Shown: positions 1-51,483, numbered from the stretch's first letter. The stretch is DNA of 64,000 bases from an uncultured Eubacteriales bacterium (GCA_964538085.1 CAZIDF010000008.1:80466-144465), one strand, 5' to 3'. Program-made: numbers and translations. Notes: generated from the letters alone by a model not told the origin.

Positions 1-837
1 ATGCTGGTAACTGGATTTATCCTGATGATTTGTATTTTGCTAACCCTGATCGTCCATAAAAGGGAAGTCACCAAATCCTCGAGGAAAATCCTCGAACAAA
101 AAACAAATGAATCCGTCACCGAAAAAGCCGAGGAAAAACCACTCAAAAAAGGCGGCGGCTTTCGTATAATATTCCAGAGCAAGTACCTTTTCTTGGTCGC
201 ATTAGTCATTTTGTGTCTTAATTACGTCAACACTACAGGAGAATACATAAAATCCAGCGTGTGGCAGAAAACAACGACTGAAGCTATCGCGTCAGGAAAG
301 ATCGAAAATACAGCGGAAGCTAGGTCGGAATTCTACACAAAAACAGAATCTGATTTCACCTCAGTCGCGAATCTGTTGGCCATGCTCATCCAGCTCTTTT
401 TGGTTTCCCGAATTTTCAAATGGTTTGGCGTAAGAGGAGCAATGCTCTTTCTCCCCTTCATCGCATTGGGGGGTTATTTTCTAATCGGTCTTGGCGCATC
501 ATATGCTGTTGTCAGATGGACTAAAACGGCAGAAAACAGCACGGACTATTCTTTGATGAACACCGTCAAGCAAGCTTTATATCTCCTCACGGACAGGGAA
601 GCAAAATACAAAGCTAAGGCAGCCATAGACACGTTTTTCGTGAGAACGGGAGATGTTTTGGTGGCTTTGACAATATTTATCGGGACTACCTACTTTGCAT
701 TGAATTTGGAAAGTATTGCGAGACTAAACGTGGCGGTTGCTGTGATTTGGATAATTCTGAGCTTTTTGACTATCAAAGAGCACAAACGATTATCAGCGAA
801 AAGAGTCGCCGATCAGCAAAATCCAAATGCCGAATGA
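1..837 (+). CDS. C-terminal portion of a polytopic membrane transporter, possibly a TLC-family nucleotide (ATP/ADP) translocase-like protein; the 5' end lies outside the window
   Basis: The ORF is open at the window start and contains several hydrophobic helices. The segment KYKAKAAIDTFFVRTGDV resembles the conserved K-x-K-A-A-V-D...GK region I recall from TLC ATP/ADP translocases. This assignment is from memory of the family only. Confidence 0.45.
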   Translation: MLVTGFILMICILLTLIVHKREVTKSSRKILEQKTNESVTEKAEEKPLKKGGGFRIIFQSKYLFLVALVILCLNYVNTTGEYIKSSVWQKTTTEAIASGKIENTAEARSEFYTKTESDFTSVANLLAMLIQLFLVSRIFKWFGVRGAMLFLPFIALGGYFLIGLGASYAVVRWTKTAENSTDYSLMNTVKQALYLLTDREAKYKAKAAIDTFFVRTGDVLVALTIFIGTTYFALNLESIARLNVAVAVIWIILSFLTIKEHKRLSAKRVADQQNPNAE

Positions 838-861
838 ATCGAACACAAAGAACAGCCTCCC

Positions 862-1698
862 CTATCGCAAATCCTTGACCTTCAGGATTCCGCCCGAATC
901 CTGGGCGATGTACAAAAAGCCCTCATCGTCTCTGGCGATTCCTTCCTGATTATCCCCAACGAATGCATACTCTTTGACGATCCTGCCTTCGAGGGTTATC
1001 TCGACAAGGATGTTGTCCGCATCGTCCACCACATTCAACAATCGGGTTCGATGATCATAATACATGGCCGCAGGGTCGTCTAATTTCAGGGGCAAAACCC
1101 GAAGGATGTGGGCTTCCGCTGTCCGCTCCTGGCTGGATTTCAAAGGAATTTGGACTTCCATGACACAAGGGGGATCCCACTGGTTCCCGATATAAAATGT
1201 CCCCCCTTCCGGATGTTCTTTATCCTCCACGAATGCGATGGATTCGATTCCATTGTCAAAACGGTCCTCTCGCTTCTCGATATAACCGGGATTGCCTTCA
1301 TACTCACGATTTAAAGGGAAGGAACGGATGACCTCCCTTTTTTCAGGATCGAACTCTAATATTATATCAGCTCCCTCTTTCACCAGATACAAAAGCCCTG
1401 ACTCCGGATTGACTGTAACACCTTCAAGATCTCCCGGAATTGCTTTCCTGAACACGGGAGTGCCATCTTTTTCGATTTCCATAATCTCACCTTCATCGCT
1501 GACGACAAAAAGCGTTTTCCTCGTCGGATGAAAACAAATACCCGATGGCTCAGGGAACTCTTGATGATCTATAGTCCCGCCATACCCAGGCTCACCCAGC
1601 CACTGGTAGGGAAACCGGATGGTAGGAGAATACTTTGTATTCGAGCAAGCCGCCAGAAAAAACAGGAATATCAACACCCAAATTTTTGTTCTTTTCAT
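862..1698 (-). CDS. lipoprotein with an SdiA-regulated/phytase-like beta-propeller domain
   Basis: The N-terminus MKRTKIWVLIFLFFLAACS has a lipobox Cys. The motif EPSGICFHP...LFVVSDEG is typical of the SdiA-regulated (YjiK-like) propeller family. Confidence 0.55.
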   Translation of the reverse strand: MKRTKIWVLIFLFFLAACSNTKYSPTIRFPYQWLGEPGYGGTIDHQEFPEPSGICFHPTRKTLFVVSDEGEIMEIEKDGTPVFRKAIPGDLEGVTVNPESGLLYLVKEGADIILEFDPEKREVIRSFPLNREYEGNPGYIEKREDRFDNGIESIAFVEDKEHPEGGTFYIGNQWDPPCVMEVQIPLKSSQERTAEAHILRVLPLKLDDPAAMYYDHRTRLLNVVDDADNILVEITLEGRIVKEYAFVGDNQEGIARDDEGFLYIAQDSGGILKVKDLR

Positions 1699-1810
1699 TT
1701 AACCTGCCTTTTGTGAATGATCCATAACATTTTATTTGATTTTCTAGCGACTTGTCATTATTATATTAAGGCAAAACGAATGGGGAAAAGATAGACATGA
1801 GGGAAAAACC

Positions 1811-2635
1811 ATGAAAAGGGCAATTTTTCTCACCATAACCTCCGTTTTTATGTTATCCACTTTTTTGGCCCATGCGCAATTCAGTATGGATGAGATCGCC
1901 AAAAGGGAAAAAATTGAACAACTACTCAAAAAAGCCGATATTTCCAAAGCCGAAGAAATCGGGGAAGGCGTTACTAAGCCCTGGCGGCTTTACCTAAACA
2001 AAGAGGAAGAAGAACTGAGCGGGTGTTGGAAGAATCCCCAAGGAGTCCAGAAGGGCCACTTGGAAGGATGGCAGTATGAGATCGCAGCTTACCGGATGGA
2101 CAAGCTCCTGGGATTAAACATGATTCCTCCCACTGTCGAGAGAGAGTTCGAAGGAAAAAAAGGCTCTCTTCAGCTCTGGGCCGAATCGGATTTCAGTTTA
2201 CTCGATGTGATGGAACAAGGTATTCCTCTTCCAGTCAAAAATCCCGAAGCTACGATATTCAACAGAGGTAAGTATTTAGCCCGGGCATTCGATAGCCTCA
2301 TTGCAAACGAAGATCGAACACAACAAAATGTCCGCTATAGAAAGGATTGGCGAATGATTCTGATTGATCATTCTCGTTCCTTCCGCAGCAAGAAGAAATA
2401 CCAGAAGAAACTGTTGTATGGAAAGAATGGATCGAAAGAAAAAAAACTTTTCAAGCAGCTCCCCTACTCATTCGTGGAAAAGGTCAAATCCTTAGATTTT
2501 GATACAATTAAAAATGCAGTGGGCCCTTACCTTTCGAACGAAGAGATAACCGCTATTCTGGCTCGTAAAAAACTGCTCCTCGAAGAAATCGAGGAGATGA
2601 TCGAAGAAATGGGCCAAGACAAGGTACTATACTAA
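1811..2635 (+). CDS. secreted atypical protein kinase, Fam20C/four-jointed-like fold (paralog 1)
   Basis: There is a signal peptide (MKRAIFLTITSVFMLSTFLAHA). The catalytic-loop-like LIANEDRTQQN and metal-binding-like ILIDHSRSF align with GNMDRHH...HLDNGRGF of Fam20C as I recall it. It is 60-70% similar to the adjacent paralog over the core. Confidence 0.5.
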   Translation: MKRAIFLTITSVFMLSTFLAHAQFSMDEIAKREKIEQLLKKADISKAEEIGEGVTKPWRLYLNKEEEELSGCWKNPQGVQKGHLEGWQYEIAAYRMDKLLGLNMIPPTVEREFEGKKGSLQLWAESDFSLLDVMEQGIPLPVKNPEATIFNRGKYLARAFDSLIANEDRTQQNVRYRKDWRMILIDHSRSFRSKKKYQKKLLYGKNGSKEKKLFKQLPYSFVEKVKSLDFDTIKNAVGPYLSNEEITAILARKKLLLEEIEEMIEEMGQDKVLY

Positions 2636-2662
2636 ATTACCTATGAAGGAGGGACAATAACG

Positions 2663-3493
2663 ATGAAAAAGCTTTTCCTCTTGTTATTAATCTTGACATT
2701 TGCCGTTGGCTTCCCATTCCAGGCTTTTGCCCAATTCACTGACGAAGAAGTGGCCGAAAGGGCAAAGTGGGAGGATTTTCTCACCAATGCAGAAGTCACT
2801 GCGCAGGAACAGCCTTTCAGTGAATCGGAAGCTGTGACAAAACCATGGAAACTCACCCTGGAAAAGGATGGAGTCACAAAAAATGCGCTTTGGAAGAACG
2901 CCGAAGGGCGCATGAGGGGATTTGTGGAAAATTGGAGATGGGAGATCGCCGCGTACCTACTGGATAAACATCTGGGGTTGAACATGGTTCCTCCCACAGT
3001 AGAAAAAAGATTCCAGAATAACCTTGGTTCTTGCCAGATTTGGGTGGATGCCAAGATGAGCCTCAAGGAGAAATTCGAGCAAGATATAAAGACACCTTCA
3101 TATAAAGTTTTTCCTTGGAATCGGGCTCTTTACCTGCAACGGGCGTTCGATAATCTGATAGCCAACGAAGACCGTCATCAGAATCAATACCTTATAACCG
3201 AAGACTGGCGTATGATATTAATCGATCATTCCCGCTCTTTTCGCACTTCCGGTAAATTCGCCAAAAATCTCATCTACGACGAGAATTACAAAGAAGGTCC
3301 CCGTTTGATGAAACAACTGCCTCGCGCATTTGTGGATAAATTGAAAGCTCTAGATGCCGACTCCATCAAAGGTGTTGTCGGTGAATATTTAACTGACAAA
3401 GAGATCGAGTTCGTCCTGATTCGGCGGGACCTTATCATCAAATGGCTGGATAAAGAAATCAAAAAAGAGGGAGAAGATAAAGTATTATATTGA
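2663..3493 (+). CDS. secreted atypical protein kinase, Fam20C/four-jointed-like fold (paralog 2)
   Basis: There is a signal peptide (MKKLFLLLLILTFAVGFPFQAFA). It carries the motifs LIANEDRHQNQ and ILIDHSRSFR, in tandem with its paralog. Its RBS/start lies 28 nt after the previous stop. Confidence 0.5.
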   Translation: MKKLFLLLLILTFAVGFPFQAFAQFTDEEVAERAKWEDFLTNAEVTAQEQPFSESEAVTKPWKLTLEKDGVTKNALWKNAEGRMRGFVENWRWEIAAYLLDKHLGLNMVPPTVEKRFQNNLGSCQIWVDAKMSLKEKFEQDIKTPSYKVFPWNRALYLQRAFDNLIANEDRHQNQYLITEDWRMILIDHSRSFRTSGKFAKNLIYDENYKEGPRLMKQLPRAFVDKLKALDADSIKGVVGEYLTDKEIEFVLIRRDLIIKWLDKEIKKEGEDKVLY

Positions 3494-18736: not shown

Positions 18737-18829
<93 letters not shown>

Positions 18830-18878
18830 ACCGGAGGATTCCGGTCCTCATTGTAACACTTTTACAACCGGAGTCAAC

Positions 18879-18968
18879 TGGCGGAGGGAGAGGGATTCGA
18901 ACCCCCGTCACGATTGCTCGTAAAGCGGTTTTCAAGACCGCCGCCTTCAACCACTCGGCCATCCCTCC
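18879..18968 (-). tRNA. tRNA-Ser (anticodon TGA)
   Basis: The reverse complement reads GGAGGGATGGCCGAGTGGTTGAAGGCGGCGGTCTTGAAAACCGC...GGGGGTTCGAATCCCTCTCCCTCCGCCA. It has a long variable arm and anticodon TGA. Confidence 0.85.
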
Positions 18969-18969
18969 G

Positions 18970-20316
<1,347 letters not shown>

Positions 20317-41310: not shown

Positions 41311-42237
41311 TTAAAATAGATTTTTTTCGTACCAAAATTCTCGCGATTTCACGCGAAAACCCATTGTTTTGTACAGCTGTATGGCGGGAGTATTTTCGCT
41401 ATCGACCGTTAGTTCCAATGAGGAAACTTCCCTTTTTTTCAAATGTTCCCAGCATGCGAGGAACAGCTTTTTTCCCCATCCTTTTCCTTGGAAATCAGGA
41501 TCGATCCCGAACATGTGAAGCCGCCATTTTCTTTTTTCGACGGGCTTTCCCTCTCTTATAAAAGGATGCAGCCAGCCGTATCCGATGATTTTGGCATTCT
41601 CTCGAATCAGGAGGATATCCTGCCATTTGGACTGGGTAAGACGAAAAAAGTAGCGGATATCATCGGGGGAATTGGGGCAAAATCCCCAACTGCCCGTAAA
41701 AATGCGATTCTGAACCGTGGCCAGTAAAGCTGCATCTCCAGCTCGAAAATGTTCCACAGGAACAGAATCAACTGTTTTCTTATGCGGACCTGCCAGAACG
41801 GCTTCCATCCCTAAAAAACACCGGGCTTGAGAGAAACCCAGCTCGACAGCAAAATTTCGGTTAAACTTGTCTTCTTCTGGAGAACTGAGGTGAGCCACAT
41901 GGGCTCCCTGTTGTCGACCTCGCTCACAGCCATACTTCACCAGTTCTCTCCCAATTTTTTTTCTCTGGACGCCAGGATGCACGAACCATTCGATGATCGC
42001 CCGGCCTATGCGAAGCTCTGTCGTCACATCGACGATACCCACGAGCCTCCGGTTCAACTCGGCGATGAATAGGTCCTTTTCTAATGAATAATTGGACCGG
42101 CCCAGATTATTTTTGACGACCGGAGATCCCCCTTGCCAGATTTCGCCCTTCATATGATACGCGTAGCGAAAAAAGCTTTGAAATTTGGCCCAATCTCGAG
42201 ATGTGGGATTTGTGATGGAGAGCGATCCAGTGTACAT
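41311..42237 (-). CDS. two-domain GNAT N-acetyltransferase (MshD-like architecture)
   Basis: It is 308 aa with two GNAT cores (VHPGVQRKKIGRELV...; IDPDFQGKGWGKKLF...). Confidence 0.7.
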   Translation of the reverse strand: MYTGSLSITNPTSRDWAKFQSFFRYAYHMKGEIWQGGSPVVKNNLGRSNYSLEKDLFIAELNRRLVGIVDVTTELRIGRAIIEWFVHPGVQRKKIGRELVKYGCERGRQQGAHVAHLSSPEEDKFNRNFAVELGFSQARCFLGMEAVLAGPHKKTVDSVPVEHFRAGDAALLATVQNRIFTGSWGFCPNSPDDIRYFFRLTQSKWQDILLIRENAKIIGYGWLHPFIREGKPVEKRKWRLHMFGIDPDFQGKGWGKKLFLACWEHLKKREVSSLELTVDSENTPAIQLYKTMGFRVKSREFWYEKNLF

Positions 42238-42330
42238 GATTTAATCGGGGATGTTCCCCAAAGGCAAGGATTGTATCAGAGAATATGTTAATATACAATT
42301 TCTGACACATTATTTTAGAGAGGGAATGAT

Positions 42331-43035
42331 ATGACTGAAAAAAAAGCCGATTTTCTGGTGTTCACGCCACATCCAGATGACGCTGAATTCGGAACCTCTG
42401 GCACCGTGGCCAAGCTGACGCAAGAGGGAAAAACAGTCGTGTATATTGTCTGCACCAACGGAGACAAAGGCACGGATGATATAAATGTGCTCCCTGAGGA
42501 TCTTGTCAAGATTCGAGAAAAAGAACAAGAGGAGGCAGCGAAAATTTTAGGGGTCCAAGAAGTGATATTTCTGCGCCACCCAGACCAGGAATTGGAGGAT
42601 ACTCCAGAATTTCGCAAAGAAATTGCCAAATACATTCGTATGTACAAACCTGAAATCGTGATCACGGCTGATCCCTATCGGCGATACGTGTGGCACAGAG
42701 ACCACAGGATCGTCGGCAGAGTTGTCATGGATGCCATCTTTCCTTATGCCAGAGATGTGTGGGCCTACCCGGATTTCATGGACTTGGGGCTTCTCCCTCA
42801 CAAAGTCAAAGAGGTGTGGCTGTGGGCACCTGAAGACCAGGATATCAACTTTCGTTCAGACATCACGGAAACCTTCGAAACCAAGGTCAAAGCATTGAGC
42901 TGCCATAAAAGCCAGATCAAGGAGCCATTCAAATCAGAGATGGAAAAATGGCTCTGTAAGCGGGCAAAAGACATGGCAGAAGGTCAAGCGTTCAAGTTGG
43001 CGGAAGGCTTTCACCGTGTTGAAATATGGTTTTAG
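42331..43035 (+). CDS. PIG-L/LmbE-family N-acetylglucosaminyl deacetylase (BshB/MshB-like)
   Basis: FTPHPDDAEFGTSGT...VVYIVCTNGDKGT matches the LmbE signature, and the 234-aa length is BshB-like. Confidence 0.8.
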   Translation: MTEKKADFLVFTPHPDDAEFGTSGTVAKLTQEGKTVVYIVCTNGDKGTDDINVLPEDLVKIREKEQEEAAKILGVQEVIFLRHPDQELEDTPEFRKEIAKYIRMYKPEIVITADPYRRYVWHRDHRIVGRVVMDAIFPYARDVWAYPDFMDLGLLPHKVKEVWLWAPEDQDINFRSDITETFETKVKALSCHKSQIKEPFKSEMEKWLCKRAKDMAEGQAFKLAEGFHRVEIWF

Positions 43036-44275
43036 ACCGAAAATCGATCTTCAGCAGTTCTTCGAAAATCCGATAAATTTTTTCGGCTGTTCTGTCCCAT
43101 GAAAACCTGCGGACAACGTCCTCTCTGACCGAGGCTACACTCCAGAGTTTTTTACGATGATCGAACAAATTTTCTATCGCGTGTAAAAGGGAGACAGGAT
43201 CACCCGGACGAAAAGAAAATCCATTTTTCCCCTCTTTTACAATGTTTCTCATTCTCCCGACCTGACTGACGATGATCGGTGTCCCGCAAGCCAGGGCTTC
43301 CACTGTTACGAGGCCAAATGATTCATACAACGAAGGAACGATCAGGGCATCGGCAACAGAATAATATTTACGGAGCTTAGAATGGTCGATCGATCCTAAA
43401 AAACTCACTTTATTTTCAAGCCCAATTTGTTCGGCCTGTGCTTCTATGCGAGAGACTTCCTCGTTTTCGAATAATTCTTCTTCCATTTTTCCTCCCCCGA
43501 TGACAAGAAGCTTGGTCTTTTCGAAGAGGAGAGGATTTTTTTGCTTCATGATTTTCAAGGCCTCGATCACGAGGGCAAGTCCCTTTACAGGTTCGATTCG
43601 TCCCACGAACAGGAGAATAAAATCATCCTTTCGGATCCCCTTTTTATTCAGAAACACCCGGTTCTCTCCTGGATAAAATAGCCTCGGATTCACACCAGGA
43701 TGCACAACTTCTACCTTTGAGGGAGAAATGCCATATTCCTTGACCAGACTTTCCCTTTCTTCTTTGGATGGCGAAATGATCAAGTCGGAATCGTTGGCGA
43801 TATATCGCTCCGAATTTGCCCGGTTGCTGTGTTCCTTTTGGCCCAATGCCCTCCTCTTGATGAACCCGAGAGTGTGATAGGTATGAACGAGAGGCAAACC
43901 TAATTTTCGTTTGATGAAAATCCCAGCTAATCCTGAAAGCCAGTAGTGGGAGTGGACAATATCATAGTCTTCCTTTTGGCGGTGGATATACTCTTCCAGA
44001 TTTTTCGAGAATTCCGGAATAAACGGATACAGATCCGTCCGATCGATAGCAGTCTCCGGGCCTCCCCTCAGCTGGACAACACGGATCTGTGGGGAAATAT
44101 CCTTGGCCTCCACACAAATGGGGTCCTTGGCACGCGTGAGAATGTCGACGCTGACGTGCGGGAAATCTACCAATCCGGCTGTCAACTCGCGCAGGTAAAC
44201 ACTCATGCCTCCACTTCCGTTTCCGCCTAAACTGGAATACGGACAGCTGTGAAAGCTGATCGTGCAGATTTTCAT
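42992..44275 (-). CDS. GT4-family retaining glycosyltransferase (MshA/BshA-like)
   Basis: It has the GT-B fold with an EX7E region and the N-terminus MKICTISFHSCPYSSLGGNGSGGMSVY. Its 3' end overlaps the convergent LmbE gene by 44 nt. Confidence 0.8.
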   Translation of the reverse strand: MKICTISFHSCPYSSLGGNGSGGMSVYLRELTAGLVDFPHVSVDILTRAKDPICVEAKDISPQIRVVQLRGGPETAIDRTDLYPFIPEFSKNLEEYIHRQKEDYDIVHSHYWLSGLAGIFIKRKLGLPLVHTYHTLGFIKRRALGQKEHSNRANSERYIANDSDLIISPSKEERESLVKEYGISPSKVEVVHPGVNPRLFYPGENRVFLNKKGIRKDDFILLFVGRIEPVKGLALVIEALKIMKQKNPLLFEKTKLLVIGGGKMEEELFENEEVSRIEAQAEQIGLENKVSFLGSIDHSKLRKYYSVADALIVPSLYESFGLVTVEALACGTPIIVSQVGRMRNIVKEGKNGFSFRPGDPVSLLHAIENLFDHRKKLWSVASVREDVVRRFSWDRTAEKIYRIFEELLKIDFRSKTIFQHGESLPPT

Positions 44276-44280
44276 CGTTT

Positions 44281-45282
44281 CTATTCTCTTGGTCTCAATT
44301 TTAAGCTGTATATTTTACTTTCTTCCGCGCCAAAAAAATACTTATATTTTTCCCCTCCTCTCAGGAAGTCTGCGATTGAAATTTGATTAGCTATAGCATG
44401 CTTGATCGCACGATCGAAAAGATAGAATCCAGGGCTGTAAGACGCATAATCTCGATCATAGGCAATATTATAGAAATACAATATGTCTTCAAACCAAAAA
44501 TTCAACAGGGCGGCTATAAATCTATTTTCGAAATACAGCATGTTTAATTCCACCCAACTCTCGGAAGAAAAGTGATCGGTAAGAGTTTGGAAAAAATCGG
44601 ACATCTCTCGTTTCTGCCAAAATTCCCGTTTCGAGAGATTGCTCCTTTTGTGCAGAGATATGAACTCTTGGATGGCAGGCTTCAATTCCTCGGACGTTTT
44701 GATTTGCTCATACCGAATATGCCCTAATGATTCCAATTTCCGGATTTTTCTGCGAAGTTCATGTCGATTTTTTCGGCCGAGGTTCGTGACATATTCCTGG
44801 TAGGAGCCCGGCAGTCTCAAGATCGGGACACTTTCCCCCTCCTTTATTTCGCAGGTCATATTGTGTTCGTTTGCCAATCGAGGGAGGACCGACAAAGTGG
44901 GAGAAGATCCGGGAATGTTGATGAACTCTGCATGAGAATATTCGGGAATATTCCTTTGCAAATGATCCAGCAAGTCTCCATAGAACTCATCATGTTTTTC
45001 TGCATTCGAGAAAAAATCGCAGTAATCCGTCACTTCATGACTGGCAATAAATCCAAGCACATTGTTGGATTCCATCAAAGGGGCGATTCCGACAAGAGAT
45101 TCCGACCTATCTCGAAAAAATAATATTTCGAGTTCTCTATCCCGTCCAAAATTTTGCCACCAGGCATCGAACCACTGATGTGCAAGAAACGGGCTGTTCT
45201 GACCGGAACAAGATAGAAGCGCATTCCACTGCTGCCTGGTTTCGATGAACCTTTCATATCTGGCTATCCGCTCGACTTCCAT
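44281..45282 (-). CDS. Fem/CelD/BioF2-like acyl- or aminoacyl-transferase (GNAT-fold, Acetyltransf_6-like)
   Basis: It is 333 aa, and family resemblance (FemAB-like fold) is judged from length and pattern only. It lies immediately upstream of the GT4 gene on the same strand with a 5-nt gap. Confidence 0.45.
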   Translation of the reverse strand: MEVERIARYERFIETRQQWNALLSCSGQNSPFLAHQWFDAWWQNFGRDRELEILFFRDRSESLVGIAPLMESNNVLGFIASHEVTDYCDFFSNAEKHDEFYGDLLDHLQRNIPEYSHAEFINIPGSSPTLSVLPRLANEHNMTCEIKEGESVPILRLPGSYQEYVTNLGRKNRHELRRKIRKLESLGHIRYEQIKTSEELKPAIQEFISLHKRSNLSKREFWQKREMSDFFQTLTDHFSSESWVELNMLYFENRFIAALLNFWFEDILYFYNIAYDRDYASYSPGFYLFDRAIKHAIANQISIADFLRGGEKYKYFFGAEESKIYSLKLRPRE

Positions 45283-45496: not shown

Positions 45497-45631
45497 TTAG
45501 CCTGAATCATTTTACAGGTTTTGATTGCTGTAGCGGCGAGGAGATGGCTCATGAGTTGTATTATGTATACTGCGATTGGGCCATGACGATGCCGATGCAG
45601 TGAGATTAGCCTGTAAAATGATTCAGGCTAG
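45497..45631. repeat. inverted repeat: 22-nt arms (45497..45518 and 45610..45631, 21/22 match) flanking about 91 nt
   Basis: Arm 1 is TTAGCCTGAATCATTTTACAGG; arm 2 is CCTGTAAAATGATTCAGGCTAG. Additional TGTTAGCCTG/ATTAGCCTG copies occur at 45371, 45493 and 45605. The element is intergenic. Confidence 0.85.
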
Positions 45632-47740: not shown

Positions 47741-50700
47741 TCAGAGAGTGGAAAGATAGTGTTGGGCCCAGATATGATTGATGTTCAATCCCAAGGCATT
47801 CTCGAATTCTGATTTGGCTTTTTCCTTATCTCCCTTTCCCAAATAGCTCAAGCCCAATAAATAATGCGCTTGGGCTTTCCGGAACGCTGCCGATTGCCTT
47901 TCCCCGAACTTAGCGAAAAAATCCATGTCCGCTGTCGCTTCCAATCTTTCTTCTGCAAACTGTTTCAATCCCGAAAACATCCGCATGGCATCCTCTTTTC
48001 GTCCTAATTCCCGGTAGGACATCCCTTGGTAAAAACTCAACTCAGACCATTCTCTTTCCTGCTCGATAGCCTTTTCATGATATTCTCTAGACTTTCCCTC
48101 ATCTCCCAGACTTTCATATGCTAAACCCACAAAATACTGGACTCGCGGCTCCCCTCCTCCACGAACCGGCTTGCCGACTTCCAAATTCTCTGGATACTCC
48201 AATGCAGCGAGAAAACTCCTGAGGGCGCTCTCATAACCTCCGGATGAAAAAGATCGCAGCCCACGCAAGAGATGGGCATCGACATACACGTTGTGGATCC
48301 TCCCTCCTCCTTCCCACACATGGAAGTGATGGGTTTGGAGCAACTCGATCGCTCTTTCATAATCTCCCATCTGAACCAAAAGACCGATCTCCCGGGATAG
48401 AGCATCGTCCCTCATTCGCACAATCTCGTGGTTCTCCGCCAAGAGGGCAAGCCTTTTGTCCGGAGATACTCCCCCCGCTTCATACAAAATGTCTAACTCA
48501 TAGTAAAGCCGGGGCTCCGAAGGAGCAAACGCACGGGCCTTCTCCATGCTCTCTATCGCGCGGGCAACATCATTTTGCACCCGGGCATACGCTAATCCCA
48601 AGTTGCGATGGCATAGGGCAAAATGATCATCCAAAGATATGGATATATCCCAGTGCTTTATAGCTTCTTCCGGTTGATGGTCGAACAACAGGTTTCCCAT
48701 ATAATAGAATGCTTTAGAATCCAACGGATTTTTCTCAAGGGCTTGTTTGAGGACATCCCTGGTTTCCCATCGGAAGGGAAAACAGAAATCTGGAGGCATT
48801 TGACTGGCTCTTTTGTAATACGCGACGGCTTTATCCTCGTCTCCTTTTTTCCCAAAATAATACCCTATATAGTAATATACCATCGGAAATGGAGATTTTT
48901 GTCGCTCCAACCGGCTCAGCACATCGATCGCTTCATTCCATAATCCGGCCCTCCCGTAGTCCACAGCCAGCTCCAGAAAATTTTGAGCAAAATAATGCAT
49001 TTTCGAGTCTAATTTTTTTTGATGTGCGGCGGCTTCACTCTTGTGTCCCAACTCTGCCAGTAACATTCCTAGCTCATTGGCCGCCCAAAAGTTTATGGGA
49101 TCTTCTGACAATATCTTTTCCGCAGTCCAAGAGGCCTCTTCCTTTTTGCCGATTTTTCTCAGCAACACAGATTTCAGATTCTGTGCCCGCAAATTCATAG
49201 TATTCAATGCAAGAGATTTGTCGATAAACTCCAGGGCTTTCGGATACTCCCCCTTGATGCATGTAAGTTCTGCCAATTCATAATAACTCGCTGCTCCCCA
49301 CGCCTGACTCCACGCAGCTCTGAAAAAAGCATCATAAGCCTCGTCATATCTGTGCTGTGAACGAAGAGCCAATCCAAGATAATAGTATGCCTCCCCATCT
49401 TTTGGCCTGACGTAATTTTTTGTCGCTCTTCGCAAGGCCCGATTTAAACATTCTTCGGCTTGGACAAACATGCCCCGTTTGCAAAAGAGGATAGCCAAAG
49501 CCGTGTTGACAGCATAATTGTCCGGATCTCTTTTCAGAGCTTCCTCATAATAAGGATAGGGCTCGAGGGCTGGATTCAAGAACTGTTCCAGTTTTAATCC
49601 TGTGTGGTAGAGTTCGTCTACCGTGCCGATCTTTTCTGGGGTAGGTGGAGATTTGACCGCTTCTGGCAAGGAATTTCCTTCTGGCTTTTCGGGAACATAA
49701 CTGATCAGGTTCTCCCCCGCAGGGGAAAAAAGTGAAAATCGAAGGTTTTCCCTCTGCAAATCGATTGGAAGTTTTAGCTCCTCAAAATAGGGAGCCTGCG
49801 GAGAAATATCGATTGTCTTTTCAAACACAACTTTTTTTCCTGCCAATAAGACCAGCTTTGCACCCCGATGCGAGCGGGTTGTATTCAATCCCATCTGTAC
49901 AAATCCCTCAGGATTCGTTTCAAGATAGAGGGCGGCTTCTCTGTTGGCATTTTTTACACCCTGGATCTTCCGCAAAGGAAACCAGAGCTGCTTGACCACC
50001 CTCGCTTCAAAAGGCTGGAGCCAGCTGTAATCAGGCTGGTTGTCCGAGTAGGCTCCGACCATCAACTCGATATATGGGCCATCCGCGTCGGTCAGGATCT
50101 TTTCCCACATCTTTCCCTGCGTTCCAGTTCCCCATGTCCAGAACTTCTTGCCCGGAACGATGTGGTGATCTGCGACATGAACCACGCCGGCCTTTTTCCC
50201 ATGGTCGTATCCAGCCGAAAAATCCTCCTCACAATCCCAGGCAAAAAAGGATGTGGGAGCTGGATGGTTTTTGTACCAGCTGATGTCCACACCTTGGGTA
50301 TAATCCACACCATTGAAGACCTCGGTCGAAATCGGCCAGCGCGAAAATTGATTTTTCCCGTGGAAAGTGGCAAATTCAGTACCCGGTGGAAAGATGATCT
50401 GGTAATCCTCGTTGGCATGAACCGCCACATTGGCCCAATAAAGCATGGACTGGGCCAGAGGCGTGCGGTTGAAGAGTTTGACCGTCGCCTCCAGGTAGGA
50501 TCTCTCGGGATAAAGAGTGAGACCGATGATCCATTTGGTCCGGTGGCGGATCTCCACCTCCCCTATCCATATGGTTTTGCTGCCATCGGGATTTTCTGTC
50601 AGGGTGTAGTCGACCGGCATAAATGACGTGGCCCTGTGATGATGGGGAAAATTCCACTCCACTCCACCGGATATCCAAGCCCCCAACATACCGATCAAGG

Positions 50701-51088
50701 CGGGCTTTATGACGTTTTGGCGATAGAAAAAATCATACCCGTTGGTCTTATCCAGGGCAGAGAAAATTCTCCCGCCGATCTCCGGAAGCACGCAGATCTG
50801 CACATAGTCATTCTCGAGATACAGCGCTTTGTATGTTTTGTCCTCGTATTGGTCTGTCAGCATATCCAGCATCGGATAGGGATAGATCGGCCCTCTGGCC
50901 CCTTGATAGGCACGTCCGTTGTAGAAGAGGGGAAATTTGTCGGGTTCACCCACGAGGTAAGTGGGAATGATAAGAGACTCTTCCCAAGCCTTAACATCCG
51001 GAAAAGCAAAAGAGGATTGTGTTCCCCACAACAATACGACCATCCCAAGAACAAGCGATAGGGCACCCCATCTTTCCCTTTTTTTCAT
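47741..51088 (-). CDS. large exported TPR-repeat protein with N-terminal non-TPR domain (DUF5107-like)
   Basis: It is 1115 aa with a signal peptide. The C-terminal roughly 650 aa are TPR-like (repeated AxxYYxLGxxY patterns). Confidence 0.55.
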   Translation of the reverse strand: MKKRERWGALSLVLGMVVLLWGTQSSFAFPDVKAWEESLIIPTYLVGEPDKFPLFYNGRAYQGARGPIYPYPMLDMLTDQYEDKTYKALYLENDYVQICVLPEIGGRIFSALDKTNGYDFFYRQNVIKPALIGMLGAWISGGVEWNFPHHHRATSFMPVDYTLTENPDGSKTIWIGEVEIRHRTKWIIGLTLYPERSYLEATVKLFNRTPLAQSMLYWANVAVHANEDYQIIFPPGTEFATFHGKNQFSRWPISTEVFNGVDYTQGVDISWYKNHPAPTSFFAWDCEEDFSAGYDHGKKAGVVHVADHHIVPGKKFWTWGTGTQGKMWEKILTDADGPYIELMVGAYSDNQPDYSWLQPFEARVVKQLWFPLRKIQGVKNANREAALYLETNPEGFVQMGLNTTRSHRGAKLVLLAGKKVVFEKTIDISPQAPYFEELKLPIDLQRENLRFSLFSPAGENLISYVPEKPEGNSLPEAVKSPPTPEKIGTVDELYHTGLKLEQFLNPALEPYPYYEEALKRDPDNYAVNTALAILFCKRGMFVQAEECLNRALRRATKNYVRPKDGEAYYYLGLALRSQHRYDEAYDAFFRAAWSQAWGAASYYELAELTCIKGEYPKALEFIDKSLALNTMNLRAQNLKSVLLRKIGKKEEASWTAEKILSEDPINFWAANELGMLLAELGHKSEAAAHQKKLDSKMHYFAQNFLELAVDYGRAGLWNEAIDVLSRLERQKSPFPMVYYYIGYYFGKKGDEDKAVAYYKRASQMPPDFCFPFRWETRDVLKQALEKNPLDSKAFYYMGNLLFDHQPEEAIKHWDISISLDDHFALCHRNLGLAYARVQNDVARAIESMEKARAFAPSEPRLYYELDILYEAGGVSPDKRLALLAENHEIVRMRDDALSREIGLLVQMGDYERAIELLQTHHFHVWEGGGRIHNVYVDAHLLRGLRSFSSGGYESALRSFLAALEYPENLEVGKPVRGGGEPRVQYFVGLAYESLGDEGKSREYHEKAIEQEREWSELSFYQGMSYRELGRKEDAMRMFSGLKQFAEERLEATADMDFFAKFGERQSAAFRKAQAHYLLGLSYLGKGDKEKAKSEFENALGLNINHIWAQHYLSTL

Positions 51089-51483
51089 TCTTTTTCCTTC
51101 GATCTATTTTTATCTTTTCTCCTCTTGAAATCGCGCACATTCAACCCGATCGATAGACAAAAAGCGGTAACTAAAAAAGCGATAGCGAATTTATCCACCA
51201 GCGCCCGGCTGACATCCAGACCGGTCAATTGCTCGACAAGGAATTCTAGATAGGAGGTCGAACTATCGTACAGGCCCAGTTTCATCCTCACCTGCCAGTG
51301 CCAATCCGTGCAGGGACAATAGCCGAAGCCATACCAGATCCCCAAAAAAAACCAGGATAATGCTGTCAACAGGATAATAACCAGATTGGCCAATCTCGTC
51401 TTTTTCCAGATCCATCCAAAAACGATGAACAGAATAAGACAGGTGTGGAATACAAAGAAAAAAATGTTCAGGAAGACGTACAT
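51085..51483 (-). CDS. small polytopic membrane protein (DUF2784-like)
   Basis: It is 132 aa with 3-4 TM helices. Its stop overlaps the TPR gene start. Confidence 0.4.
   Translation of the reverse strand: MYVFLNIFFFVFHTCLILFIVFGWIWKKTRLANLVIILLTALSWFFLGIWYGFGYCPCTDWHWQVRMKLGLYDSSTSYLEFLVEQLTGLDVSRALVDKFAIAFLVTAFCLSIGLNVRDFKRRKDKNRSKEKE

Follow-up and report, generated by a model that had tools for sequence, protein, structure and literature searches.

The stretch of DNA analysed here (the window) comprises 64,000 nucleotides (nt) from an uncultured Eubacteriales bacterium (GCA_964538085.1 CAZIDF010000008.1:80466-144465), and between positions 41311 and 45282 it carries four adjacent genes for a Fem-like transferase of the PF13480 family, an MshA-like GT4 glycosyltransferase, an LmbE/PIG-L deacetylase and a tandem-GNAT acetyltransferase. 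The source names of close homologues, one of which lies on a complete 4.35-Mb genome, place the organism in Aminicenantes (Acidobacteriota). The reading that we favour, with slightly better than even confidence, is that the module builds a small N-aminoacyl-glucosaminide through the combined action of the GT4, the LmbE protein and a Fem-fold transferase supplied by aminoacyl-tRNA; the Aminicenantes gene set as a whole probably makes an undescribed amino-acid–glucosamine metabolite.

The core of the proposed pathway is a three-gene cytoplasmic module consisting of the Fem-like transferase, the MshA-like GT4 and the LmbE deacetylase. In a first step, the GT4 would move N-acetylglucosamine (GlcNAc) from UDP-GlcNAc to a small phosphorylated acceptor, for which an inositol phosphate is the leading candidate and a sugar or polyol phosphate would also serve. 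LmbE would then strip the N-acetyl group to leave a free C2 amine, which the Fem-fold PF13480 enzyme would acylate with an amino acid from aminoacyl-tRNA; in mycothiol and bacillithiol synthesis this role falls to MshC and BshC, ligases that depend on ATP. The tandem GNAT, found in most Aminicenantes, would probably acetylate the new alpha-amine, as MshD does.

Open reading frame (ORF) calls and a Pfam hidden Markov model search gave the following features, in agreement with the four adjacent genes and domains described in an earlier sequence-only reading of this DNA:

44281-45282, minus strand: Fem-like double-GNAT transferase (PF13480), 333 aa; PF13480 Acetyltransf_6, 110.5 bits (cut-off 22)
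42992-44275, minus strand: GT4 glycosyltransferase, MshA/SPS-like (SPS, sucrose-phosphate synthase), 427 aa; Glycos_transf_1 142 bits and Glyco_transf_4 102 bits
42992-43035, no strand: convergent overlap of the 3' ends of the GT4 and LmbE genes, 44 nt, from ORF coordinates
42331-43035, plus strand: LmbE/PIG-L zinc de-N-acetylase, 234 aa; PF02585, 126 bits
42238-42330, no strand: divergent intergenic region between the start codons of the LmbE and tandem-GNAT genes, 93 bp
41311-42237, minus strand: tandem-GNAT acetyltransferase of MshD-like architecture, 308 aa; two GNAT stretches (Pfam)

Homologue searches returned hundreds of orthologues for each of the four genes, so they are not chance ORFs. 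The GT4 start codon lies 5 nt past the Fem-like stop, and the LmbE gene is on the opposite strand, with the 44-nt overlap exactly as first described. Among 35 Aminicenantes-type loci (40-100% Fem-like identity), 32 share the 44-nt length and two have 39 nt, and in the last (L028) an 826-bp gap takes the place of the overlap. Because the genes overlap convergently, the GT4 and LmbE mRNAs must be complementary at their 3' ends, which could couple them by antisense or transcriptional interference. The 93-bp intergenic region presumably holds one or more promoters; promoter-like matches in it are no commoner than chance, and the promoter and terminator scans gave nothing above the chance level. 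No membrane segments or signal peptides were found in the four proteins, and from their sequences all four look cytoplasmic.

The assignment of the first gene to the Fem/CelD fold proved correct: in addition to its PF13480 match, the protein is modelled confidently as a double-GNAT Fem fold. When the model was compared with solved structures, the nearest were nearly all aminoacyl-tRNA transferases (FemA, FemX, MprF and Sbb17), the last being an enzyme that glycylates an amino sugar. A clear gap in both Z and TM score separates these tRNA-dependent structures from enzymes that use coenzyme A (CoA), the best acyl-CoA tandem GNAT scoring 14.6 and MshD 13.1, and the Foldseek order was identical. 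PF13480 is the only Pfam match of the window protein, with no significant sequence match to PF02388 (FemAB), and PDB sequence searches with the protein and with a close-family profile found no match; the distant relatives L047 and P0375 show weak PF02388 matches. With a wider profile that included distant family members, the best PDB match was S. aureus FemX (6snr), at a weak E of 0.048 and collinear across both domains, and in this alignment a conserved, strongly basic helix, RKNRHELRRK, is paired with the FemX segment ERRNRSKVRLALKR. Two elements do not vary across the family, the Asp of an (S/T)DY motif and the motif DFLRGxEKYKY; K314 in the second of these is, by its C-terminal position, a candidate counterpart of catalytic K305 of FemXWv. 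The C-terminal GNAT domain has no CoA-binding Q/RxxGxG/A motif.

At an E-value of 0.001 or below, the Fem-like protein has matches in about 14,000 clusters (50% identity). Some proteins of the wider PF13480 family are 750-1085 aa long and carry two tandem Fem-like modules (P0269, P0276, P0298, P0322, P0342, P0375 and P0274), the last of which also carries a response-regulator receiver (REC) and a GGDEF domain; by analogy with FemA and FemB, the tandem arrangement suggests sequential aminoacylation steps. Fem-GT4 fusions were not found among these long proteins, which are Fem-Fem tandems.

The GT4 has MshA (TIGR03449) as its best NCBIfam match, with 282.2 bits over the full length against a cut-off of 462.5, and it scores 107.3 bits with the BshA model (cut-off 273.7). 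Its PDB matches are about equal for the sucrose-phosphate synthase of Thermosynechococcus (TeSPS, 6kih, 201 bits) and the MshA of C. glutamicum (CgMshA, 3c4q, 200 bits), with BshA at ~65. In CgMshA, the acceptor phosphate is reportedly bound by K78, Y110, T134 and R154 (the work of Vetting et al. 2008). In TeSPS, Arg105 and Arg178 grip the phosphate of sucrose-6-phosphate (PMC7264703). These two arginines correspond to R79 and R152 of the window protein (constant +3 numbering offset, verified at six landmark residues), which share alignment columns with CgMshA K78 and R154, and Y111, H134 and T135 correspond to CgMshA Y110, H133 and T134. All five residues are kept in 38 of 38 distinct Aminicenantes orthologues, except for a change of R79 to K in one. 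The UDP-binding and ExxxxxxxE residues are retained as well. With the exception of the K78 equivalent, the phosphate-site positions recur in the independent GT4s of L066, L068 and L074. This retention of MshA/SPS phosphate-binding residues argues for a phosphorylated acceptor, and the lack of hydrophobic segments in the four proteins and of a flippase or polymerase gene favours a soluble acceptor over a lipid one. UDP-GlcNAc is the probable donor because a de-N-acetylase adjoins the GT4. The GT4 homologue search returned Aminicenantes orthologues only and hence gave no outside context.

Among the four genes, LmbE shows the strongest conservation (66-91% identity), and its product contains the metal-binding motifs HPDD (residues 14-17) and HRDH (HxDH, residues 121-124). 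It scores 112.2 bits with the BshB1 model (cut-off 182.5) and 39.6 bits, over the N-terminal part only, with the MshB model TIGR03445 (cut-off 224). The tandem GNAT aligns over its full length with the MshD model TIGR03448 at 63.8 bits (cut-off 163). In the PDB, its profile finds the mycobacterial tandem GNAT MAB_4324 (7q3a) best at 77.9 bits and MshD at 47.9, and its C-terminal domain has a canonical CoA motif, FQGKGWGKKL. The protein credited earlier with exactly the MshD architecture is MshD-like in architecture only; of the MshB/BshB-like description of LmbE, the LmbE/PIG-L family and the BshB-like size stand, and closeness to BshB does not, as the protein is nearer to the diacetylchitobiose deacetylase Dac.

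To place these assignments in genomic context, we turned to loci from other genomes. Our Aminicenantes set consists of 39 loci with the Fem-like gene, from species-representative genomes, and Fem-like, GT4 and LmbE genes occur together in every one whose contig is long enough, even where Fem-like identity drops to 40%. Outside Aminicenantes, PIG-L stands beside the Fem-like gene in 15 of 21 non-redundant loci and two more have GT4 only; a metagenome scan seeded with distant Fem-like members only yielded 20 loci, in 16 of which PIG-L and/or GT4 is adjacent. In other lineages a Fem-like/LmbE pair, in some cases without GT4, turns up in at least four further gene orders. The orders seen outside Aminicenantes include LmbE>GT4>Fem and Fem>LmbE, plus Fem-like>GT4>PIG-L, which the metagenome scan contributed as a fourth order. 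Recurrence in several gene orders and phyla supports a functional link among the three genes. In L068, Fem-like>GT4>PIG-L is flanked by housekeeping genes and is free of further sugar genes, and L074 is alike but shows no PIG-L; both settings speak for a small-molecule product. In L066, the trio comes after a gene for a single-domain GNAT. Other settings are richer in glycosyltransferases (GTs): in metagenome-assembled genomes of Deltaproteobacteria and Terriglobales, PIG-L>GT4>Fem-like follows a nucleotidyltransferase gene and a further GT gene, and Gottesmanbacteria have Fem-like>PIG-L behind three GTs.

The Deltaproteobacteria and Terriglobales loci form a second conserved cluster type (L049 2631-8978, L050 4253-9005 and L056-L058), composed of Glyco_trans_1_2, nucleotidyltransferase, (methyltransferase), PIG-L, GT4 and PF13480 genes, with a radical-SAM/SPASM gene adjoining it in L050. 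The GT4s of this type are without the MshA-type phosphate site, two of its positions being absent. In the Gottesmanbacteria locus (L047 3486-13371), a GT2 gene, a GT1/GT28-like gene, another GT2 gene and a gene for a 455-aa protein without a Pfam match come before the Fem-like/PIG-L pair, and peptidyl-tRNA hydrolase and Mur ligase genes lie just downstream of it.

Several observations, taken up here and in the next two paragraphs, weigh against the assembly of a small N-aminoacyl-glucosaminide. With respect to the acyl donor, the sole NCBIfam match of the Fem-like protein is to a reported crotonyl transferase, BspF (38 bits), and because of this match and the mixed nature of the PF13480 family an acyl-CoA or acyl-acyl carrier protein (ACP) donor has to be considered. 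Moreover, neither the clusters nor their surroundings contain a tRNA gene or an aminoacyl-tRNA synthetase gene dedicated to the module. If the GT4 and LmbE acted as proposed and the PF13480 enzyme were an acyl-CoA/acyl-ACP N-acyltransferase, the product would be an N-acyl glucosaminide, for instance some glycolipid, surfactant or re-acylated sugar. We consider this unlikely: the nearest characterised structures nearly all use aminoacyl-tRNA, with the clear gap to CoA enzymes noted above; the CoA pyrophosphate-binding motif that is missing from the Fem-like protein is present in the neighbouring tandem GNAT; and in the profile alignment the conserved basic helix has the FemX region ERRNRSKVRLALKR as its counterpart.

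With respect to the acceptor, the SPS match of the GT4 equals its MshA match, so neither its donor nor its acceptor is fixed, and the Fem-like/LmbE pairs that sit among several GTs in Gottesmanbacteria and in the Deltaproteobacteria/Terriglobales type may modify a glycan and not a small molecule. Such pairs also fit the idea of a lipid or surface-glycan target, in which the GT4 would place GlcNAc on the head group of a phospholipid or on a lipid-linked sugar and aminoacylation of the freed amine would tune surface charge. There is precedent for parts of such a scheme: a GT4 and a deacetylase make up the known route to glucosaminyl-phosphatidylglycerol (GlcN-PG) (PMC12713373), a GT4 and a PIG-L deacetylase yield glucosaminyl-phosphatidylinositol (GlcN-PI) in the PIG-A/PIG-L pathway, MprF-type relatives aminoacylate lipids, and the inositol-phosphate-binding loop of PimA serves a lipid acceptor (PMC2988379). 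In addition, a secreted DUF5916/CBM9 protein is encoded just upstream of the cluster. We nevertheless regard a lipid target as rather unlikely, since the GT4 scores only 91.8 bits with the GlcNAc-PG synthase model (GpgS, NF053787; cut-off 480) and has no PIGA domain, there is no flippase or membrane protein in the window cluster or in the L068 and L074 clusters, hydrophobic segments are missing from all four proteins, and DUF5916 is missing from several syntenic loci. Nor is the locus an ordinary surface-polysaccharide locus, the outcome that the sequence-only reading had set against its own proposal: it has a single GT, no flippase, polymerase, polyprenyl-phosphate/lipid-carrier transferase or export gene lies near the cluster, the proteins have no membrane segments, and the GT4 keeps its phospho-acceptor site.

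The remaining points concern the partners and their linkage. No window protein passes any NCBIfam Msh or Bsh equivalog cut-off, and the PDB matches of LmbE favour the archaeal diacetylchitobiose deacetylase Dac (8bgn, 140 bits) over BshB1 (6p2t, 66 bits); because all the proteins fall below the equivalog cut-offs and other PDB relatives are closer or equal, the resemblance to the Msh and Bsh systems is one of architecture and logic, not orthology. The tandem GNAT, which occurs in Aminicenantes-type loci only and always between LmbE and transketolase, is present in 20 of the 27 loci with a visible interval and absent from seven, where the interval is just 238-558 bp. These seven belong mostly to one sub-clade of the Fem-like tree, and we therefore take the gene to be an ancestral but dispensable accessory. 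A tandem GNAT split into two overlapping ORFs in L007 (3262-4295), by a frameshift error or as a pseudogene, fits dispensability. Finally, the transketolase, nuclease and Na/H exchanger genes that neighbour the locus are equally syntenic in Aminicenantes, and since such unrelated neighbours are syntenic too, linkage within Aminicenantes alone is weak evidence. This synteny would suit an explanation in which the genes are neighbours by phylum-wide gene order only and have unrelated roles, for example LmbE in chitobiose/GlcNAc catabolism and the GT4 in compatible-solute synthesis. It would also be suited by the place of LmbE on the other strand, behind a promoter region of its own, and by the closeness of LmbE to the catabolic Dac. 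We judge this explanation highly improbable, because Fem-like/PIG-L(/GT4) recurs outside Aminicenantes in other orders and with different flanks, far more often than a domain with a few copies in each genome would lead one to expect.

Returning to the N-aminoacyl-glucosaminide pathway, a particular form of it concerns the identity of the amino acid. The absence of MshC and BshC, on which the sequence-only reading had relied, was confirmed within the 64-kb window: none of its 50 largest ORFs has a BshC, an MshC/CysRS-like (tRNA-synt_1e) or an inositol-phosphate synthase domain. With Cys-tRNA(Cys) as donor, the module would constitute a third, tRNA-dependent route to a mycothiol/bacillithiol-like thiol, (N-acetyl-)Cys-GlcN-X (GlcN, glucosamine), in which a Fem-type transferase replaces MshC/BshC; we hold this more specific version to be distinctly doubtful. 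As to tRNA genes, one ARAGORN call in L011 lies inside a coding region and was taken as spurious, and in the window a seryl-tRNA synthetase gene adjoins two tRNA-Ser genes (anticodons GCT and TGA) at 18738-20241, 22 kb from the cluster, an arrangement that looks housekeeping.

We found no description in the literature of a module of MshA-like GT4, LmbE and PF13480 enzyme, nor of a thiol pathway in Aminicenantes. The proposed module resembles the mycothiol system (MshA-D) in having a retaining GT4 of the MshA/SPS subgroup with acceptor-phosphate residues, an LmbE-family de-N-acetylase and an adjacent tandem GNAT, and in the logic of a GlcNAc glycoside converted to a free amine, then to an amino-acid amide and then N-acetylated. 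It differs in its scores against the MshA, MshB and MshD models (282 versus 462, 40 versus 224 and 64 versus 163 bits), in the use of a Fem-fold transferase in place of the CysRS-like MshC, of which there is none in the window, in an LmbE protein that is BshB-sized and Dac-like, and in the organism, a member of Aminicenantes and not of Actinobacteria. With bacillithiol synthesis (BshA-C), it shares a GT4, an LmbE deacetylase of ~230 aa and subsequent acylation of the glucosamine amine. However, the scores are again low (BshA, 107 versus 274 bits; BshB1, 112 versus 182 bits), the window has no BshC, and the phosphate site of its GT4 suits a phospho-acceptor and not malate.

The Fem-like protein shares with FemABX and MprF (aaPGS) the double-GNAT fold, a conserved C-terminal Lys-containing motif, the basic helix and the lack of a CoA-binding motif. 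In contrast to them it has no significant PF02388 match, coiled-coil insert or membrane domain, and the genes that accompany it suggest an amino sugar as acceptor, not a peptidoglycan precursor or phosphatidylglycerol. The GlcN-PG (gpgSDF) and glycosylphosphatidylinositol (GPI)-type GlcN-PI (PIG-A, PIG-L) systems likewise use a GT4-type GlcNAc transferase followed by a de-N-acetylase, but their substrates are lipids, flippases or membrane enzymes belong to them or are required, and aminoacylation is not among their steps; the window GT4 is far from GpgS (92 bits against a cut-off of 480) and from GlcN-PI synthesis (no PIGA domain), and its cluster has no membrane protein.

The closest chemical parallel is offered by the streptothricin analogue BD-12, whose pathway includes glycosyltransferase and deacetylase steps and proceeds through an amino-sugar intermediate, streptothrisamine, to the C2 amine of which the Fem-like enzyme Orf11 adds Gly from Gly-tRNA (PMC10156733, PMC12945691). 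The conjugate of a new type that had been suggested would not be wholly new in its chemistry, since tRNA-dependent aminoacylation of a de-N-acetylated amino sugar is already known from BD-12 (PMC10156733, PMC12945691). The two systems are otherwise well separated. The BD-12 enzymes Orf11, Sbb17 and Sba18 have just 12-14% identity to the window Fem-like protein, and BD-12 derives from a Streptomyces secondary-metabolite cluster with a guanidino-N-glycosyltransferase, whereas the present genes form a compact module at a fixed chromosomal site, with class-wide conservation and an MshA-like GT.

The surroundings of the cluster have several further features. Between the DUF5916 and Fem-like genes, the window contains an inverted repeat at 45498-45630 with 54-nt arms whose 21-nt ends are perfectly complementary (TAGCCTGAATCATTTTACAGG); the 358-nt intergenic RNA that includes it folds well above shuffled controls (z -5.35) and is without an Rfam match, as is the whole of 41-46 kb of the window. 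We rejected this repeat as a part of the system because it is strain-specific: apart from the window, L002, a contig of the same species, is the only one to have it, and related loci are without it. At 47741-51483 of the window lie genes for a 1115-aa DUF5107 and tetratricopeptide-repeat (TPR) protein and for a DUF2784 protein, and several Aminicenantes (L003, L006) have them in synteny with the cluster. In L006, the stop codon of the upstream gene is just a few bases ahead of the Fem-like start. In another Aminicenantes relative, L004, the upstream flank (1-3074) carries a trio of FGase, MATCAP and RimK/glutathione-synthetase-like ATP-grasp genes, and genes for a rubrerythrin, an Rrf2 regulator and a radical-SAM protein lie directly upstream of the Fem-like gene. 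A role in defence was considered unlikely, as the module occupies a fixed chromosomal position.

Aminicenantes are a widespread uncultured group of sediments and the subsurface, and we know of no redox buffer or compatible solute that has been identified in them. If the proposed function is true, the module would be a candidate pathway for a major small metabolite of this group; on the doubtful Cys-tRNA reading, the thiol would be the redox buffer of Aminicenantes and of several other uncultured anaerobic lineages. With the proposed function, the pairing of PIG-L with PF13480 would be a cassette of general use for exchanging the N-acetyl group on a GlcNAc residue for an amino acid, and part of the large and generically annotated PF13480 family would gain a function. 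More broadly, tRNA-dependent aminoacylation of amino sugars would extend from a single antibiotic pathway to conserved, core-like metabolism.

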